The notes under the pieces were generated by a model. That model ran no database searches. It was given only the letters and a program-made list of their open reading frames with translations, and had not been told where the DNA came from. From positions 1 through 31,276 of the IMG/VR virus record IMGVR_UViG_2534682222_000020: a DNA stretch of 31,276 nucleotides. One strand, written 5' to 3'. Position 1 is the stretch's first letter; every line of letters begins with the position of its first letter. The DNA comes from a virus. Taxonomy: Duplodnaviria > Heunggongvirae > Uroviricota > Caudoviricetes. Made by a program: the position numbers and the translations under genes. Positions 16,559 through 27,503 of the stretch are shown here, piece after piece.

Positions 16559-17422
16559 TTATTTTTTATCGGCGGTGCTCTTTTTCGTCGTTGTTTTGCG
16601 GGCCGCCGTTTTACGTGTTGTGTTGCCAGGGTTGCTTTTGGTGGCTGGCTTTTTGGCAGCTGGCACCGTCACTTCCGGCGTTGCTGCAGCCTGATCATTA
16701 CCCCCTTCGCCCCCGCTCTGGTCTGCGCCCTCACTGTCTGATGCATTTTCCGCAGAGGCCTTTTTCACCTGCCTGGCAAGCTTATCGATCAGTTTTTTCA
16801 CCCCGGCGCCGGAGTCGAGATTCAGCGCACGGCGCAACAGCTCCAGCGCAGTCGCCTGTTCATCCGTTGTGCCGTTGCACAATGCAAAAGCGCGGGCTTT
16901 ATACAGCTTGGCCCGGACAACGTCTGGCATATCGCTGTTTTCAGTGATCTCCTGGACCTCATCGAGCACCGCCAGATATGGCTTAACATCAGTGCTGTCA
17001 TCCGCCTTGACCTGCAACAGAATGGGATCGCAAATCTCATCGACCAGCGCTGTCGCTGCCGTGCGGTTAAACCGGTCTGGCATTGCCAGATTGTGCGCGA
17101 TGACATACCGACCGATGCGGACGGCCAGTGGATAATCACGAATATCAATCGCCCAAATCATCAGTCGCGTGATCACTTCATCCTGTCGCCCGCTGTCTCC
17201 CTCCAGCGTTCCTTCAATCCACCCCTCGTAATTGGGTAGCAGCTGGCGTTTAAGCGCGGCTTTTGCCTGTTCGCCCTGAATTTTCTTCAGCGCACTCATA
17301 TCCATACGCATGCGATGCAGAATTTGCTCGTGCGCAGTACGCGCTGTTTCTGACAGATCATCTGCCTTGCCATGGCGTTCAGCCATGACGCGTTGAAAAT
17401 GTCGTTGTGCCGGTGTCAGCAT
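16559..17422 (-). CDS. M: Terminase endonuclease (small) subunit M
   Basis: ORF 16559..17512; preferred ATG 17420..17422 (MLTPAQRHFQRVM); downstream of capsid gene N; Lys/Thr-rich low-complexity C-terminal tail. Confidence 0.75.
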   Translation of the reverse strand: MLTPAQRHFQRVMAERHGKADDLSETARTAHEQILHRMRMDMSALKKIQGEQAKAALKRQLLPNYEGWIEGTLEGDSGRQDEVITRLMIWAIDIRDYPLAVRIGRYVIAHNLAMPDRFNRTAATALVDEICDPILLQVKADDSTDVKPYLAVLDEVQEITENSDMPDVVRAKLYKARAFALCNGTTDEQATALELLRRALNLDSGAGVKKLIDKLARQVKKASAENASDSEGADQSGGEGGNDQAAATPEVTVPAAKKPATKSNPGNTTRKTAARKTTTKKSTADKK

Positions 17423-19535: not shown

Positions 19536-21257
19536 ATGGCGATTGAAGAAGCATTCATCATGCAGCGTGCACGACAGCTTTACTGGCAGGGCTACCCGCC
19601 AGCAGAGATCGCACGCCTGATGGGGATCAACCAGAACACGGTTTACTCATGGAAAAAGCGAGATGAATGGGACACCACACCGCCGATCCAGCGCGTGACA
19701 ACATCCATTGATGCCAGGCTAATTCAGCTCACTGGCAAAGACAAAAAGACCGGCGGTGATTTCAAAGAGATTGACCTTCTCACCCGTCAGCTGAAAAAGC
19801 TGGATAACGGCACAGCAGCCACCCAGCCGAAGAAAAAGATCCGCAAAAAGCAAAACTATTTCTCAGAGTCGCAGATTGCCGCGCTGCGGGAGAACATTCT
19901 CGGCTCTCTGCACTGGCACCAGAAAGGGTGGTATGACAATCACCACTGGCGCAACCGTATGATCCTGAAAAGCCGTCAGGTTGGTGCGACGTGGTATTTC
20001 GCGCGTGAAGCTCTGGTGCGCGCCCTGTCTGAGGATGTGAAATACAAGCATCAGCGCAACCAAATCTTTTTATCGGCAAGCCGCCGCCAGGCGTACCAGT
20101 TTCGCAGTTTCATTCGCTCGGCCGCCGAAGAAGTTGATGTGGAGCTTAAGGGCGGCGACATGATCCAGCTGTTCAACGGCGCCGAGCTGCATTTTCTTGG
20201 CACGTCAGCGGCTACCGCTCAGTCATACACGGGCAACCTGTATTTCGACGAATTCTTTTGGGTAGGCCAGTTTGCCAACCTGAAAAAAGTCGCGGGCGCT
20301 ATGGCAACGCTAAAAGGCCTTACGCGTACCTATTTCTCCACCCCTTCAGCCGAAAGCCATGAGGCTTATCCATTCTGGACAGGTGAAGCATTTAACAAAG
20401 GTCGCAGCCATGGCAAGCGCATTGAGTTTGATACATCCTGGAAAACACTTAACAGCGGCCTGATGTGCCCGGACAAGATCTGGAGGCAGATTGTCACGTT
20501 GCAGGATGCTATCGACCATGGATGGGATCTGACTGATATCGACGAAATCCGGGAAGAGAACAGCCCGGAAGAGTACGACAACCTGTACGGATGCCAGTTC
20601 ATCAAAAGCGGTGAAAGCGCCTTTGACTATAACAGGCTACTGGCATGCGGTGCTGATGGTTATGACGACTGGCCCGACTGGCGGCCATATGCGGCCCGCC
20701 CTATGGCTGATCGTCCCGTCTGGATTGGCTACGACCCGAACGGCGCCAGCGGCAAGGGGGACAGTGGAGCCATATCCGTTAACGCTGTGCCGATGGTGCC
20801 CGGCGGCAAGTTCCGCACGATTGAGACACTACGCATACGAGGGATGGAGTTCGAAGAGCAGGCCAATCTCATTATCGGCATGCTCACCCGGTACAACGTG
20901 CAGCACATTGGGATCGATGGCACCGGTATTGGTGAAGCGGTTTATCAGCTGGTTAAAAAGCATTTCCCGGCAGCGGTTTGTTACCAGTTCTCACCGTCCA
21001 GCAAGCGAATGCTCGTTCTGAAGATGCAACAGCTGATTCGTGGCGGGCGCTGGGAGTTTGATCGTGGTGAGCTTGACCTGGTTGGTGCATTCAACTCTGT
21101 CCGCAAGATCGTTACCCCTGGCGGCGTTGTCACTTACGACACGGACCGCTCTCGCGGCGTCAGTCATGGCGATCTCGCATGGGCGACGATGCTTGCCACC
21201 ATTAACGAACCGCTGGGACAAGAAGGCGGCAGCAGTATGACAGTTACGGAGTATTAA
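19536..21257 (+). CDS. P: Terminase ATPase (large) subunit P
   Basis: 573 aa; divergent from O; GAGGAGG RBS before ATG 19536. Confidence 0.85.
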   Translation: MAIEEAFIMQRARQLYWQGYPPAEIARLMGINQNTVYSWKKRDEWDTTPPIQRVTTSIDARLIQLTGKDKKTGGDFKEIDLLTRQLKKLDNGTAATQPKKKIRKKQNYFSESQIAALRENILGSLHWHQKGWYDNHHWRNRMILKSRQVGATWYFAREALVRALSEDVKYKHQRNQIFLSASRRQAYQFRSFIRSAAEEVDVELKGGDMIQLFNGAELHFLGTSAATAQSYTGNLYFDEFFWVGQFANLKKVAGAMATLKGLTRTYFSTPSAESHEAYPFWTGEAFNKGRSHGKRIEFDTSWKTLNSGLMCPDKIWRQIVTLQDAIDHGWDLTDIDEIREENSPEEYDNLYGCQFIKSGESAFDYNRLLACGADGYDDWPDWRPYAARPMADRPVWIGYDPNGASGKGDSGAISVNAVPMVPGGKFRTIETLRIRGMEFEEQANLIIGMLTRYNVQHIGIDGTGIGEAVYQLVKKHFPAAVCYQFSPSSKRMLVLKMQQLIRGGRWEFDRGELDLVGAFNSVRKIVTPGGVVTYDTDRSRGVSHGDLAWATMLATINEPLGQEGGSSMTVTEY

Positions 21258-21259
21258 CC

Positions 21260-22312
21260 TTGAGCAAACAAAGACCCACACGCGGCAGGAAGTATGCCAG
21301 GGAGCAGGCAGATCTCGCCGCCTCACTGAAAGCGTCACCGGAGCTGAACTCATTCACCTTCGACGGCCCATGGCCGGTGAGTGGTGCCAGCGACCTGCTT
21401 GATAACATGTATTGCGCAGACAACGGGCGATACTACGAAACCCCCATTGACTGGTATGGCCTCGCCCGTCAGTTTGGCTATGCAAGCTGGCACCAGTCGG
21501 CGCTTTATTTCAAGCGCAATGTCCTTGCCGGATGCTTTATCCCGCACAAACTTCTTTCCCGCCAGGTGTTCTCCGCCTTCGCGCTGGACTGGTTTGTCTT
21601 CGGGAATGGCTATCTTGAGATGCGAAAAAACCGGCTTGGTGGTTCCTTTGGCTTTCGTCACTCGCTGGCGAAATACACACGACGTGGTTCTGACCTGGAC
21701 ACTTACTGGTTTATTCAGGCCGGGCTACAGGATCACATGTTTTCAACGGGCTCGGTATGTCACGTTCTCAGCCCGGATATTCACCAGGAAATATACGGCA
21801 TGCCTGAGTATTTCGCTGGCCTGCTGTCTGCAAACCTGGCCCATTCTGCTGACAAGTTCAGAAAGCTCTACTACGACAACGGCTCGCACGCTGGCTGCAT
21901 CGTCTACGTTAACAGCGCGATGGCCGACCAGGAGAGCCTTGATAAGCTCAAAAAGACGCTGACGGATACCCGGCGGGGCGGTGCGTTTAAGAACATCCTT
22001 CTGCACGCACCTAACGGCGGCAAAGACTCCGTGCAAATACTGCCATTCAGCCAGATATCGGCTAAGGATGAGTTTGTGGGGGTGAAGTCTTCCACCCGCG
22101 ATGACATGCTGGCAGCGCACCGGGTGCCGCCGCAACTGATGGGAGCCATTCCGGAAGGGAACGGTTCATTCGGTGATATTGAGAAAGCGGCTCGCGTGTT
22201 CGCCGTCAACGAGCTGACACCCTGCATGGAAGCCATGAAGCATGTTAACGACTGGCTGGGTGAGGAGGTGATTCGCTTCAACCCTTACGCATTGCTTGAA
22301 CCCACGAAGTGA
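21260..22312 (+). CDS. Q: Portal protein Q
   Basis: 350 aa directly after P; start codon uncertain (TTG at 21260 in the ORF track). Confidence 0.75.
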   Translation: MSKQRPTRGRKYAREQADLAASLKASPELNSFTFDGPWPVSGASDLLDNMYCADNGRYYETPIDWYGLARQFGYASWHQSALYFKRNVLAGCFIPHKLLSRQVFSAFALDWFVFGNGYLEMRKNRLGGSFGFRHSLAKYTRRGSDLDTYWFIQAGLQDHMFSTGSVCHVLSPDIHQEIYGMPEYFAGLLSANLAHSADKFRKLYYDNGSHAGCIVYVNSAMADQESLDKLKKTLTDTRRGGAFKNILLHAPNGGKDSVQILPFSQISAKDEFVGVKSSTRDDMLAAHRVPPQLMGAIPEGNGSFGDIEKAARVFAVNELTPCMEAMKHVNDWLGEEVIRFNPYALLEPTK

Positions 22313-22545
22313 TCTCCTGGCCGCATCGTCATTTCTGGCGGTGCGGTACCACCCGCAGCACCATCATTTCCGTCCATATCGGCCACTCACGAAACACAAA
22401 TAAATCACTCCCCCTGTCAGACGCAGCCAGCGCGCTTCTGGCGCGACTTCTCTCGCGCTACCGCTTTGTTCAGCCATCAACATGAGCGCCCGACAGACGG
22501 CGAATGGCAGAGGATATGACCCCCTGCCTGACCCCCTTTGCGCGC

Positions 22546-22565
22546 GCTTGCTCCCCCGCCTCGCC
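22546..22565. other. Candidate cos site (cohesive-end region)
   Basis: Reverse complement of gcttgctcccccgcctcgcc is ggcgaggcgggggagcaagc; first 12 nt match my recollection of the P2 cohesive end (GGCGAGGCGGGG...). Located just after Q, as in P2. Confidence 0.5.
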
Positions 22566-22703
22566 TGCGCGCTAAACCGACCTCTTTTTGTGCACTTTGT
22601 GCAGGCCGCCCAGGCCCCGCCAGCGCTGGGGCGGCATGGAAAAAACGTTGTTTCAAAAATTGTGCAAATTTGTGCAACTTTTTGCATCCGCGCGGCCCCA
22701 TTT

Positions 22704-23402
22704 TTACACCTGATCAACCTCGCCGAGCGCCACCATAATCGCCAGGCGCTCAGCAGGCGGTAACGCTGCAAATTTTTCCTTCCAGCGCTGCGCCTTTCGC
22801 TTGATTCGATAGCGATCATTGTAATTTTTACCTGCAAAAGTATGCGAATAAGCGCGCCCCTCCTGGTAGTTCATCCAGATCTTCTCTGTCCTCACCCCGC
22901 CGCGCGTCATTGCCTGAAACTCTCGGGCGCGCCAGTCATGTAACATGCGGTCATAAAATCCTGACGGATAGCCCGATAAAATTACGCTGACGTTATCCGG
23001 GAGATCGCGTAAACGCGTCAGCAATCGTTCATGGTCTTTAACAGAATACTCGCACCGATAGCGCGCAGAGCTGCTTCGCGTTTCATGCAGATAAGGCGGA
23101 TCAGCGTAGATCAGCACCCGGCCAGCATAAGAATAATCAAAGCGCTCCAAAAACGTCACCGCGTCACCGACGTCAATAAACAGACTATCGCCCAGAGCAT
23201 CCAGAAATTCATGATTACTCTGGTTAAATGCCTCAATGGTCAGCGGATCAATATCAATCCCCCAACTGACTTTCGCCGGTGGCTTACGTAGCATGACAGC
23301 GCCACCGCCCAAGTGAGTTTCGATGTACGTGTCATGCGGTGGCATCTCGGCAATAATTTTTTGATAAACACCGCTCGCCGCTTTGCTTCCCAGATAGCTC
23401 AT
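22704..23402 (-). CDS. Orphan Dam-class (D12) N6-adenine DNA methyltransferase, short form, in cos-proximal cargo position
   Basis: ORF 22704..23438; preferred ATG 23400..23402 (MSYLGSKAA); motifs YLGSK, THLGGGAV (SAM binding), DPPY (catalytic). No adjacent restriction endonuclease candidate. Confidence 0.7.
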   Translation of the reverse strand: MSYLGSKAASGVYQKIIAEMPPHDTYIETHLGGGAVMLRKPPAKVSWGIDIDPLTIEAFNQSNHEFLDALGDSLFIDVGDAVTFLERFDYSYAGRVLIYADPPYLHETRSSSARYRCEYSVKDHERLLTRLRDLPDNVSVILSGYPSGFYDRMLHDWRAREFQAMTRGGVRTEKIWMNYQEGRAYSHTFAGKNYNDRYRIKRKAQRWKEKFAALPPAERLAIMVALGEVDQV

Positions 23403-23514
23403 AACTTTCTCGTTCCCAAAAAAACCAACCTGCAGCACCGCCTAAAATGACGTTGCTCGATAGAATGGCCAGAACCGTCAAAAGCGACCATGGCTGACCA
23501 TCTCACTCACTGCT

Positions 23515-26154
23515 TCAATCCTGTCTTTTTCGTTTAGCCGCCTTCTTCCAGCGCGTGACCAGGTCACACACCGCCACGTATTCAGACGTCGGTTTATCTT
23601 TCTCACCGGCACGCCATGCCTTCACTTCCTGCAACCGGCCATTATTCATGGCGAGCAGTCCGCCGCCGTGGCGAACGCGGGCACCGCCAGCAATCGACCT
23701 CACAACATCATCGCTGACGAAAATCCTGCAACTACGCAGCTGCGCGCCGATGCTGGCGATGGTTTCCTGGCTGACCCCGCCTTGTTTCGCAGCCTCTCTT
23801 TTCTGTACCTGCCGCAGCGCCGCTTCGGCTTTTTTCTTCTGGTATTCCGCAACTGCGGCGGCATAGTTATCCGCACGCAGCTCCGCTTCGGTCCGCAGCT
23901 GTTGTCGCCAACGCTGTTCTGCCTCTTCTGGTGTCAGGCTCATATCTTTCGCTGCGGCCACTTTTGGCCCCCACGTCAACGCAGTTTCATCATCAACAGA
24001 CGTGCGCAGACCGCGCGCGGTACGCTCGAAGGCTTGATCTGAGCTTTCGCGGCCAAAGTTTTTCAGTCTGCTGGTGATTTCCTGCCGTTGCTGGCGTGAA
24101 TATCGGCGCAAATCTTCGATATTCAGCGGAAGTTCTGTCATCTGACTGTCCGGGTGATCAATACCGGCATGCATCGTCGGTTTTGACGGTGTGGTACCAG
24201 CTGGCACCGCCACTTTTAACGGTGGTTTTTCGTCCGTTCCGGAGCGCCCCGTACAGTTATTGACAGAACTCCGAGGGGCCGCTGCGCGGCCTTCTAAGGT
24301 CAAAATCTCGACCGGCGACGGCTTACGCTTCGGCACAATCTTGTAATCGGTGGTGCGGGTAAAAATGACTGATTCGCTGCCCGTATAAGGGCAATAAACG
24401 CCAGTAATTTTGGCGACCGTGTCCCCATAATCATTGCCATTTTCGGTGAATTCATAGTTAAGCCGAACGCGCAGGCAATCGCGCGCGACAAATGGCCCGC
24501 CCTGAGCGTTGGTGTATCCCGGCCAGTCTGGCGCATCGGCTGCTGCCCGTGCCGCTTCCAGTTCCGGATGTAATACCAGCTCGCGACTACCTAACCGGCG
24601 CAATTCGCGCCAAGTGGTAACGGGCGCACCGCCAATCTGCTGAAACTGGCGGATATTCCAGCGTGAAGCCCAGGCGCGTACACGCTTTGCCATCTCCCTG
24701 ACCGGCTGGCCTGACTCAAGATCCACTTCACCATCCATGCCGTAGCCATCGATGTTTTTCGAGATGTATTTCGCGATATAGCCTGTTGCAGACCCAAATT
24801 GCTCGTCCATCGGCGTAACAGTAAAACGGTGCTCTGAAGCACCTTTCTCGTTACCGTCCTCTTTCATGGCGTGTTTGCGGAAAATGGCTGTTGCATACTC
24901 TACTTCCTCAGGACGGAGGAAAAGCAACAGATGCCAGTGAGGGGTTCCATCGTGGTGAGGCTCTGCAACACGAAAACCAAACGTGCGAATACCTTCGCGA
25001 CTCCATTTGGCTCTGACGCGCGCCCAGACTTTGCAAAGGTATTTTTGCGTCTGACGCGGGCTGGCGTGCTGGTACTTATCGTTTCGTCTGCCTGACTGGA
25101 CATGTGTTGAGTGGTAACGCGACGGCGCTGTCAGCGTGTAGAACATGCCAACCAGCCCCATTTCATTCGCCATATCCTCAAACCCGCGCATGCGCACCAT
25201 CAGCTCATGCCGCGCGATCTTCGGGTTGGAAACACTACCCATCACCTTATCCAGTAATGAGCTGCGCTCGCCGGTGTCCTGGTCTTCCAGCTCCATCGCC
25301 TGAAGGAATTCGAAGTTCGCTTTTTTCTGCGCAACCCATTCCCTGAAGCATGGATCAGAGCAATATGGTGAAGCCACTTTGCTGACATAGCCGGTCGCGA
25401 TCATAAGATGTTCGCGCCAGCAGTCATGGATACGGCGGATTTTGTTAAGCCACCATTTTTCGGAATGAAGTCTGCCAGCGGCACGCAGCGCCTCGTCGGC
25501 GTCCAACTCTTCATCGCAATAACGCGCCCATCCGGGGATCGCGATATTGAGCGTCGCCGCCTTGCTCGCTATAGCCCCGTATGCGTAAATCGACGAAAAC
25601 TCAAGATCGGATGTTTGTTCATACTGAAAATCAAACTCGCGCATAAACTCGCTTTTCATCAAGTTCGCAAGCTTATACGCCAGTCTTTTCAGGCGCTTTT
25701 TGTCCGCCCACGGCAGCAGGTGAAATTCATCACGCAGCGGAAGAAGAAGCGCCGGGAGCGTACTTTGTGGGAGGTATTGCGCGTTAACCGCATCAACACG
25801 GCGTAAGACATGCCGCTCAAACGTACCGAACAGCCAACGCACGACGTCTTTTGGCTTGCTGCGTTCGAGGTTTTCAAGGTGCTGCGAGAAGCGCTTACGG
25901 ATAAACGCCGGGAGCGTTTGCACCCGGCGGCGGAGGTAGTTAGCGCGGCCATTTCGATCAAATGCCTCACGCGCATCGCCCTCGCGCGGGCGCAATGGCG
26001 CGCGGTATACCGTATCAACCAGATCACCATAAGCGAGCGCCCTGCGCTCGCCTTTCGGTGTCAGATACTCAATGGCTGAACTTTCGGTTTTATGGGGGTT
26101 GATGGCCTGCCGTTTGGTATTCCATTCCCATGCTAAGGCGGTGAGATCTGACAT
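23515..26154 (-). CDS. A: Replication initiation endonuclease A (rolling-circle, HUH type)
   Basis: 879 aa; HUH-like motif TPHWHLLLF and tyrosine region GYIAKYISK; AGGTGG RBS before ATG 26154; last large gene of the early operon. Confidence 0.85.
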   Translation of the reverse strand: MSDLTALAWEWNTKRQAINPHKTESSAIEYLTPKGERRALAYGDLVDTVYRAPLRPREGDAREAFDRNGRANYLRRRVQTLPAFIRKRFSQHLENLERSKPKDVVRWLFGTFERHVLRRVDAVNAQYLPQSTLPALLLPLRDEFHLLPWADKKRLKRLAYKLANLMKSEFMREFDFQYEQTSDLEFSSIYAYGAIASKAATLNIAIPGWARYCDEELDADEALRAAGRLHSEKWWLNKIRRIHDCWREHLMIATGYVSKVASPYCSDPCFREWVAQKKANFEFLQAMELEDQDTGERSSLLDKVMGSVSNPKIARHELMVRMRGFEDMANEMGLVGMFYTLTAPSRYHSTHVQSGRRNDKYQHASPRQTQKYLCKVWARVRAKWSREGIRTFGFRVAEPHHDGTPHWHLLLFLRPEEVEYATAIFRKHAMKEDGNEKGASEHRFTVTPMDEQFGSATGYIAKYISKNIDGYGMDGEVDLESGQPVREMAKRVRAWASRWNIRQFQQIGGAPVTTWRELRRLGSRELVLHPELEAARAAADAPDWPGYTNAQGGPFVARDCLRVRLNYEFTENGNDYGDTVAKITGVYCPYTGSESVIFTRTTDYKIVPKRKPSPVEILTLEGRAAAPRSSVNNCTGRSGTDEKPPLKVAVPAGTTPSKPTMHAGIDHPDSQMTELPLNIEDLRRYSRQQRQEITSRLKNFGRESSDQAFERTARGLRTSVDDETALTWGPKVAAAKDMSLTPEEAEQRWRQQLRTEAELRADNYAAAVAEYQKKKAEAALRQVQKREAAKQGGVSQETIASIGAQLRSCRIFVSDDVVRSIAGGARVRHGGGLLAMNNGRLQEVKAWRAGEKDKPTSEYVAVCDLVTRWKKAAKRKRQD

Positions 26155-26335: not shown

Positions 26336-26538
26336 CGGGTGGCGACCTCCCGAATCTCTTCGATTGAGTCAAGCAGCAGTCGACGGCGGGTATGTTCGGC
26401 AAAGTGACGTTTGCCGGTGTCTTTCCGGTAGCACTCTGTCTTGCCGACTACCCACATGGATTCCGTCTGGTGCAACTTCTTGCGCTGCGGGCCGTCTTTG
26501 GTAATAACGATGCCCGTATGAGTCTTTTTAATGGTCAT
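26332..26538 (-). CDS. Small hypothetical early protein (68 aa)
   Basis: ORF begins at the Dam stop and ends in the ATGA overlap with the next small ORF; basic; no recognised motif. Confidence 0.45.
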   Translation of the reverse strand: MTIKKTHTGIVITKDGPQRKKLHQTESMWVVGKTECYRKDTGKRHFAEHTRRRLLLDSIEEIREVATR

Positions 26539-27503
26539 CAGAAAGGCTCCTGCGTTTCACAGCCCTTGGCAGGGTCGAAGCCTAAAAACATCTCGCCGTA
26601 AGTCGCATTCCCCATTACCGGCCCACAATCCGGGCAGCAACCACCGCCAGCACGATCGCAGCCATCACACACGCGAAGAACGCCAATAACCTCGCCAGCC
26701 ATATCGCGGCTTTTGGCGCTCACAGAGCGGCGGACACTCAGGGAGTGAAGGTTGAAGGCGGAATAAATTTCGCGAGTTTCAGGCGTGTCGCTGTTTGAGA
26801 TGATCGAGCGGGTGGCGTACTGACGGTTAACAGCCACAAGAGCCGCTACCAGAGCGCGATGATCAACCAGGGTAAAGGGTTTGCCGTAAGCGGTGAAATT
26901 GGCGGTATCGCTCGCAGGAATATAGGGCGGGTCACAATAAATCACCGCGTCATGCGCGAGTTGCATAACGTCAGGGATAGATTGGCGGAAATCACTATGG
27001 ATAAAGACCGCTTTTGTGTCGCTGGCCTTTTCGGCGAATAAGCGCATTTCCGCTTCAGGAAAGTAAGGCTCGGCATACTTACCGAATGGAACGTTGAATT
27101 CGCCCTTCTGGTTAACGCGATACAGACCGTTATAGCCATGGCGATTCAGATACAGGAAATACGCGGCATAAAGCATTGCTGCGTCCGGATCAGAGTCAGC
27201 CTGGCGGGCCAGTGAATTGAACTCTGTGCGCCGTCTGTAGTATTCCTCCGCACTGTTTCCGCCTTTGAAAGCCCAGCGGCAGGCGGCAATAGCGTCTTCT
27301 TTGCGGCCGGTTAATTGTCGGAAAAAATTAATCAGTGCGATATTGCTGTCGCAGAGAACGTAGCGGCGGTAATCCGTGTTCATAAACACAGTTCCACTAC
27401 CCACAAACGGCTCAATCAGACAATCCGCTTTCGGCAAATGCTTAAGCAGCTGCGGCATAACGCGGGTTTTTCCTCCCGCCCATTTGATTGGCGATCTGAT
27501 CAT
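26538..27503 (-). CDS. dam: Dam-family DNA adenine methyltransferase with Cys-rich C-terminal extension
   Basis: 321 aa; PIKWAGGK, EPFVGSGTV, LYLNRHGYNGLYRVN, FNVPFG, YCDPPY align with recalled E. coli Dam along its length; about 45 extra C-terminal residues with CDGC...CCPDC; ATG 27501..27503 overlaps the upstream stop. Confidence 0.85.
   Translation of the reverse strand: MIRSPIKWAGGKTRVMPQLLKHLPKADCLIEPFVGSGTVFMNTDYRRYVLCDSNIALINFFRQLTGRKEDAIAACRWAFKGGNSAEEYYRRRTEFNSLARQADSDPDAAMLYAAYFLYLNRHGYNGLYRVNQKGEFNVPFGKYAEPYFPEAEMRLFAEKASDTKAVFIHSDFRQSIPDVMQLAHDAVIYCDPPYIPASDTANFTAYGKPFTLVDHRALVAALVAVNRQYATRSIISNSDTPETREIYSAFNLHSLSVRRSVSAKSRDMAGEVIGVLRVCDGCDRAGGGCCPDCGPVMGNATYGEMFLGFDPAKGCETQEPF

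Follow-up and report, generated by a model that had tools for sequence, protein, structure and literature searches.

Two questions are raised by the DNA that lies downstream of the portal gene Q in the stretch of viral DNA analyzed here (31,276 nucleotides, referred to below as the window): whether it contains the site at which the genome is cut for packaging and, if so, how this site is recognized. A reading of the letters alone (the sequence-only reading) had noted a close match to the cohesive end of phage P2 at this position and had noticed phased copies of TTGTGCA nearby, which it took for possible binding sites of the small terminase subunit. In this study, positions 22537-22686 are interpreted as the cos site of a P2-like (Peduoviridae) prophage together with a packaging-recognition array, a reading that is given a probability of roughly 80%.

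Relative to the standard orientation of P2, the P2-like prophage of the window is reversed. The gene for the large terminase subunit gpP (19536-21257, plus strand; Pfam Terminase_5, HTH_23, Terminase_6N and Terminase_6C) is followed by the portal gene Q (21260-22312, plus strand; Pfam Phage_portal), the 3' end of which faces cos as in phage P2, and the scaffold, capsid and M genes lie upstream of P on the minus strand. M encodes the small terminase subunit gpM of 287 amino acids (16559-17422, minus strand; Pfam Phage_term_smal, E = 1.5e-42; PHROG 74), the start of which was placed at the internal ATG that aligns with the M proteins of P2, 186 and phiCTX. Beyond the cos array lies the replication gene A, encoding gpA (23515-26154, minus strand). 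The element thus encodes P2-type gpP, gpM and gpA, and its cos site has the 3' end of Q on one side and the replication/cargo arm on the other; both the Q-adjacent position and the gene order are the same in P2, 186 and phiCTX. Two methyltransferase-like reading frames were also observed. The first, of 244 amino acids, adjoins cos (22704-23438, minus strand); its match to the D12/PHROG-56 profiles is partial, and it may be either a fragment or divergent. The second (26538-27503, minus strand) is a full D12-class adenine methylase.

For comparison, the ends of the P2, 186, P4 and phiCTX records were joined and aligned on the nick; the records of P2, 186 and phiCTX carry annotations of their cohesive ends, and for P4 the ends of the record were used. 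Eighty close relatives of the window, found through gpQ, yielded 67 distinct cos regions. A set of 154 representatives, which are still mutually related, was made up of these regions, P2-group loci and viral-contig loci matching the cos-core pattern, with right-arm identity kept below 85%. Most phiCTX-group loci were cut off before cos, and three unique cos regions of this group were usable.

By analogy with P2, the predicted cohesive-end sequence of the window (the cosN core) is the 19-nucleotide segment 5'-GGCGAGGCGGGGGAGCAAG-3' on the minus strand at 22547-22565. Its first 12 bases are those of the P2 cohesive end (cosL), GGCGAGGCGGGGAAAGCAC, and 14 of the 19 aligned bases are identical overall, 5 of the last 7 bases of the overhang being different. 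The nick positions are carried over from the ends of the other phages and could be about 1 nt off. The core is nearly invariant among the 67 close-relative cos regions, and the family pattern GGCGNGGCGGGG-N8-GCGCGC, that is, GGCGNGGCGGGG-N7 with GCGCGC beginning one base later, has a single exact match in the window (22540-22565, minus strand) and none in 100 shuffles. The GCGCGC flanks of the core sit at the offsets found in P2, 186, P4 and phiCTX. Taken with the gene context, these agreements bear out the P2-like cos match downstream of Q that had originally been proposed.

The Q-side flank of the nick region, TTTGCGCGCG (22537-22546), contains the GCGCGC element that pairs with 22567-22572. 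It forms the inverted repeat I8 and the direct repeat D4 around the 19-mer and is at least 95% conserved among the close relatives. On the other side, the right-arm sequence that leads from the nick to the first repeat, TGCGCGCTAAACCGACCTCT (22566-22585), is also conserved: its TGCGCGC and TAAAC elements are retained in at least 90% of the close relatives, and right-arm positions +1 to +22 carry 1.19 bits per position across the 154 representatives. On the Q side, P4 and other, possibly satellite-borne, cos loci in which this flank is unrelated lose phage similarity right after GCGCGC, so that the requirements in cis appear to be asymmetric. A direct repeat, TGACCCCCT, was also noted in two copies 12 bp apart on the Q side just before the core (22517-22537); its runs of five C are conserved in the close relatives and are not conserved in P2 or P4.

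The right arm carries the repeat array. Four copies of TTGTGCA on the plus strand (22588-22594, 22597-22603, 22660-22666 and 22670-22676), with spacings of 9 and 10 bp, occur exactly where the sequence-only reading had placed them, and a fifth, degenerate copy that it had not listed (TTTTGCA, 22680-22686) follows 10 bp on in the same phase. However, the repeats do not flank the cos site as it had described; all five are direct, on one strand and on one side of cos, away from gene Q. Including the adjacent bases, the proximal cluster consists of P1, TTTTGTGCA (22586-22594, plus strand), and repeat P2, TTTGTGCA (22596-22603, plus strand), the TGCA cores of which start at +26 and +35 from the predicted nick. 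The distal cluster, which is embedded in A/T tracts, consists of D1, AATTGTGCA (22658-22666, plus strand; TGCA at +98), D2, ATTTGTGCA (22668-22676, plus strand; +108), and the degenerate D3, CTTTTTGCA (22678-22686, plus strand; +118). The two clusters are separated by about 72 bp, or roughly seven helical turns. P1 and D1 are both conserved in about 100% of the close relatives, whereas repeat P2 is conserved in 80-90% and lost in some, and is probably accessory.

Between the clusters lies a GC-rich spacer dyad, CCCGCCAGCGCTGGGGCGG (22616-22634; palindrome I2), with the core CCAGnnCTGG, here CCAGCGCTGG (22620-22629, right-arm +55). Allowing at most one mismatch, this core is found at +55 in 72 of the 154 representatives and anywhere within +40 to +94 in 82, compared with 4 of 154 in a control interval, and the outer arms of the dyad are often complementary in P2-type cos regions. 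A GC-rich dyad is likewise present in the spacers of 186, P4 and phiCTX. The element is not a terminator. It is absent from phage P2 and is therefore not essential for P2-type packaging.

A cluster of short repeats could arise by chance or be a functionless, decaying remnant, and the fact that TTGTGCA is not enriched in the whole window (7 copies compared with 6.25 expected) would agree with this. However, no 7-mer of the window other than TTGTGCA reaches four copies within 100 bp, no 7-mer cluster of this sort appeared in 300 first-order Markov simulations, and the conservation of the repeats is locked to position both in the 154 representatives and in 37 species-level genomes. The simulations and this conservation effectively refute the explanation, and its probability is negligible. 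Separately, an adjacent TTTTGCA-TTGTGCA pair is present on the minus strand at 16876-16889, inside the gpM coding sequence; it is probably due to chance, although it recalls phage N15, in which a remote accessory R site lies within the small-terminase gene (PMC4669245).

The positional conservation was quantified as the start of TGCR relative to the nick in the 154 representatives. A start falls at +25 to +29 in 147, at +30 to +39 in 111, at +95 to +99 in 140, at +105 to +109 in 131 and at +115 to +124 in 126, the background being about 3-6 starts in each 5-bp bin; in these non-redundant P2-type cos regions the occupancy of the slots is thus 72-95%, compared with 2-4% for the background. The distance between D1 and D2 is exactly 10 bp in 114 of 123 cases, and that between P1 and D1 is 71-73 bp in 126 of 135. 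Information amounts to 1.3 bits per position at P1 and to about 0.5 at D1 and D2, falling to 0.17-0.30 bits in the spacers and 0.05 beyond D3. The same elements are found in the known phages: the right arms of P2, 186, P4 and phiCTX contain TGCA-core repeats in two groups, with one or two copies at a distance of about 26-35 bp from the nick and two or three copies, 10 bp apart, at about 98-120 bp. The comparison with P2 and 186 that the sequence-only reading had suggested therefore places TGCA-core repeats at the same positions there, and extends this to P4 and phiCTX. That related functional cos regions might lack the repeats was an outcome that it had named as counting against its proposal; the repeats are instead present in most of the 154 relatives. 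With the GGCGNGGCGGGG pattern at 22540-22565 and array slots at about +26 (P1), +98 (D1) and +108 (D2), the window site carries every feature of a P2-family cos site that can be looked for in sequence.

The cos class of the window is widespread. A scan of species-representative genomes with a loose pattern recovered it in 37, with D1 kept in all 37; the genera include Klebsiella, Enterobacter, Kosakonia, Yokenella, Serratia and Brenneria as well as Pectobacterium, Hafnia, Morganella, Providencia, Photorhabdus and Xenorhabdus. An exact 40-mer search of the species-representative genomes gave no match. In viral contigs, the pattern scan found 118 loci with a cos site of the TTGTGCA class, of which 96 have Q adjoining cos and 21 have too short a flank to be judged. 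The remaining locus, which has no Q (L417, IMGVR_UViG_2924590115_000001), was considered as a satellite and rejected: it is a deleted prophage, in which a fragment of the tail gene D lies directly beside an intact cos array. Its content indicates that the whole block of head and tail genes was deleted while gpA, a methylase and an integrase were kept.

Among the 67 close-relative regions, the core, P1 and the D1-D2 pair show close to 100% identity and the spacer a moderate level, and identity falls to 25-40% immediately after 22686. The conserved module consequently ends exactly at the fifth repeat, D3 being its last conserved element. From 22687 onward the relatives (loci L010-L089) each carry different, unrelated cargo genes, and the position after D3 matches the cos-adjacent variable cargo/defence hotspot of P2-like phages (PMC9122126). 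These neighbours bear on the possibility that the repeats are operators or promoter elements of adjacent cargo genes, or iterons of a replication origin. Direct repeats 10 bp apart do resemble iterons, and the distal repeats of phage P2 lie tens of base pairs upstream of the mapped old-tin transcript starts, where they could overlap a promoter. However, the repeats keep their distance from the nick in relatives whose neighbouring genes are completely different, and the adjacent reading frame of the window ends rather than starts beside them. Furthermore, P4, which has been reported to share only the cos region with P2 and to have no other P2 homology (PMC9122126, PMC9594776), has the P2/186 repeats and carries all five sites. 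In the repeats region of the window neither a promoter-like site nor a terminator over the repeats was found, and the region has no match in Rfam. Owing to these null results, to the reading frame that ends beside the repeats and to the variable neighbours, a regulatory or origin function is considered very improbable, and chance is again unlikely.

The bases next to the TGCA core divide the family into classes. The two bases 5' of TGCA follow the clade, being TG in the lineage of the window, AA or CA in the P2/186/P4 class, and CC or TC in the phiCTX class. The single base 5' of TGCR is uniform across P1, D1 and D2 within a site (71 representatives have AAA, 31 have GGG and 6 have CCC or -CC), with few mixed patterns; the specificity classes represent only about three to five independent evolutionary events. 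In some loci the layout is retained and the motif is another one: CGTCGG (L333 and L334) or TGACGC (L287). The same core and proximal/distal layout were also observed in L256, with GATCC in the distal cluster. These four loci look like natural switches of packaging specificity. As a further observation, the distal cluster of the CATGCA-repeat class (for example L253, L296 and L336) is interleaved with several GATC (Dam) sites, ACGATCCTCAAACGATCATGCGATCTCATGC, and this interleaving may link recognition of the packaging site to methylation state.

These classes are informative as to whether the reader of the repeats is encoded by the host or by the phage. The repeats might be sites of a host architectural protein, or phased bendable DNA, that shape cos for the terminase. 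Host IHF is indeed used by lambda cosB, where it binds between R3 and R2 (PMC4669245), and in the window the A/T tracts around the distal cluster and the 72-bp separation suggest looping or wrapping. However, the hosts are all Enterobacterales, yet the flanking bases differ between clades and change together within each site, and other clades have exchanged the motif entirely with the layout kept, which a conserved host factor would not predict. Concerted change of the motif in all copies among closely related hosts points to a phage-encoded reader rather than a host factor, and the latter is regarded as improbable.

The phage encodes two proteins that could be this reader. gpP has an N-terminal helix-turn-helix (HTH) at about residues 10-45 (nucleotides ~19563-19670), and its first 100 residues match PHROG families named 'terminase small subunit' and 'DNA binding protein'. 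A single-sequence AlphaFold2 model of the gpP N-terminus consists of three helices, with a pLDDT of about 90 over residues 3-42, and this three-helix HTH resembles the DNA-binding ends of the small terminases (TerS) of other phages. Foldseek retrieved assorted HTH regulators for the N-terminus, none of them significant, which defines the fold class only. A putative HTH is also noted for the P homologue in the 186 record. Furthermore, where a locus includes cos as well as the start of P, the dinucleotide 5' of TGCR is tracked by a recognition-helix residue of gpP that precedes the conserved SWK motif: in 117 of 129 site observations Tyr is paired with TG, Gln accompanies AA or CA, and His accompanies CA, CC or TC. 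The divergent lineage L271, the gpP of which is 58% identical to that of the window, also pairs Tyr with TGTGCA, and L273 is an exception in having Tyr in the HTH and yet CATGCA sites. However, the gpM sequences also divide along the clades of the motif classes, and L271 shows its closest relationship to the window in all three of M, P and Q. For the former reason the covariation cannot separate gpP from gpM, and the agreement between gpP and the repeat flanks is suggestive and not decisive.

gpM was modelled with AlphaFold2 from 34 homologues, a shallow alignment in which all sequences are at least 67% identical. The core of the model (pLDDT > 90) consists of ten helices in a TPR-like arrangement, followed by a disordered, basic, Lys/Arg-rich tail of about 55 residues (232-287). 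No recognizable DNA-binding fold, and neither an HTH nor a winged-helix domain, was found in the model; Foldseek returned only TPR-type proteins, none of them significant and again informative on the fold class only, and no significant match to any solved small terminase. gpM has no solved relative. With regard to the proposal that the repeats are sites of the small subunit, the terminase-recognition part remains the likeliest reading, whereas binding by M is not supported, as the gpM model has no recognizable DNA-binding fold and the HTH is on gpP.

The same cos site and recognition array could nevertheless be read by gpM, with the gpP HTH doing something else, such as contacting the nick region. 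It is the small subunit that reads the recognition sites in lambda and other characterized phages (PMC4669245, PMC6893505), gpM is a conserved hallmark of the P2 family whose sequences follow the clades of the motif classes, and its long Lys/Arg-rich C-terminal tail or an oligomeric surface could still bind DNA. However, the model is a TPR-like solenoid without an HTH or winged helix and has no significant match to a solved TerS, and a disordered basic tail would not explain sequence-specific recognition of TGCA plus two flanking bases. Reading by gpM is accordingly held to be unlikely, although far from negligible. The HTH fused to the N-terminus of gpP is put forward as the candidate reader with a confidence that falls a little short of even odds. 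A wider scheme for P2-type terminases is proposed more tentatively still: the site would be read by the TerS-like HTH of gpP, with several copies of gpP brought in by the repeats and gpM as a TPR-like assembly factor, and specificity would depend on one or two residues of the recognition helix, the Tyr, Gln or His before SWK, that match the two bases 5' of TGCA.

A mechanism can be outlined on the assumption that the array is read by the terminase. Staggered nicks made by the terminase around the 19-mer at 22547-22565 would leave 5' cohesive ends, and the five direct repeats (P1 and P2; D1, D2 and D3) would serve, in the manner of lambda cosB, as an array for recognition and assembly. Repeats spaced by one helical turn would be occupied by several copies of the same phage-encoded DNA-binding domain, and the bound domains would face the same side of the helix, in two clusters separated by about seven turns. 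In this way the nuclease would be placed on the nick site, which lies 26 bp from P1, and the DNA would be marked for packaging. The reader would most likely be the N-terminal HTH of gpP, with gpM as an assembly or regulatory partner; several gpP copies would thus be recruited beside the nick, possibly nucleating the multimeric motor, and the right arm would presumably enter the capsid first. Phage P2 is reported to package monomeric circles rather than concatemers, in which it differs from lambda.

The conserved cos core of 55 bp is credited to Ziermann and Calendar (1990) in PMC3931495, PMC5694545 and PMC9594776. The distal cluster, about 100-120 bp from the nick, extends the packaging signal of the P2 family well past this usual core. 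According to PMC9594776, longer flanks around the 55-bp P4 core increased cosmid transduction more than 1000-fold. This gain fits a functional distal cluster, which offers a simple candidate explanation of why longer cos fragments transduce far better. The flanking bases of the distal cluster may, in addition, define classes of packaging specificity. No description of the TGCA repeats was found in the full-text literature searched, a scope outside which lie Ziermann and Calendar (1990), the P2/P4 reviews and the phiCTX papers. For the window itself, the analysis provides a predicted genome cut point and about 150 bp that would be required in cis, which aids prophage annotation and could be used in predicting mobilizable satellites and in designing cosmids or transducing particles for Klebsiella, Enterobacter and Yokenella-type hosts.

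Of the characterized systems, lambda cosB (R3-I1-R2-R1, bound by the TerS gpNu1 and IHF; PMC4669245) offers a functional parallel, as it sets packaging specificity and positions the nuclease. It is also a one-sided array of about 120 bp, with one site near the nick and more beyond a spacer. The one-sided array of the window and its concerted, clade-specific changes of motif would fit an array beside the nick that sets packaging specificity. However, the window array does not belong to the lambda family, and the two systems have no sequence or protein homology. R2 of lambda is inverted relative to R3, with the host IHF site between them, whereas the repeats of the window are all direct and the spacer element is the CCAGnnCTGG dyad. 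The winged helix-turn-helix of lambda is on the small subunit gpNu1 and the HTH of the window is on the large subunit gpP; no winged helix of the gpNu1 type was found on gpM, which has no PDB match at E <= 0.001.

The Pseudomonas phage phiCTX (NC_003278) has the same layout on the same side, with TTTTTCTGCACTTTCTGCG close to the nick and repeats of the form CCCTGCG/CCCTGCA at a distance of about 100 bp, and GACCTCTTTTT, just before its P1 slot, is almost identical to the window. It differs in the motif flank, which is CTGCR, and in its annotated cohesive ends of 21 nt, compared with the 19 nt predicted for the window. Its record annotates a 'region 3; containing R4, R5, R6 repeats' across this region, and these may be the TGCA repeats. 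P2, 186 and P4 share with the window the GC-rich core of 19 nt, the GCGCGC flanks and repeats at about +26, +98, +108 and +118. The repeat flanks differ, being TTGTGCA in the window and AATGCA or CATGCA in P2, 186 and P4, and the second proximal copy follows 9 bp after the first in the window and 6 bp after it in the P2 class. Phage P2 itself has neither this copy nor the dyad, and both elements are therefore probably accessory.

The nearest counterparts have the array of the window itself. Klebsiella phage 3LV2017 (Reginaelenavirus), the closest annotated relative, is about 80% identical over 10 kb and has the same TTGTGCA-type array, although its record does not annotate a cos site and the cargo next to D3 is unlike that of the window. 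The closest genomic relative is a prophage of Yokenella regensburgei ATCC 49455 (L488, NZ_JMPS01000018.1), the cos region of which is almost identical, including beyond D3; this suggests Yokenella or a close relative as the source of the window. Among the known P2-family cos sites, the site in the window is an ordinary feature and a lineage-specific addition.
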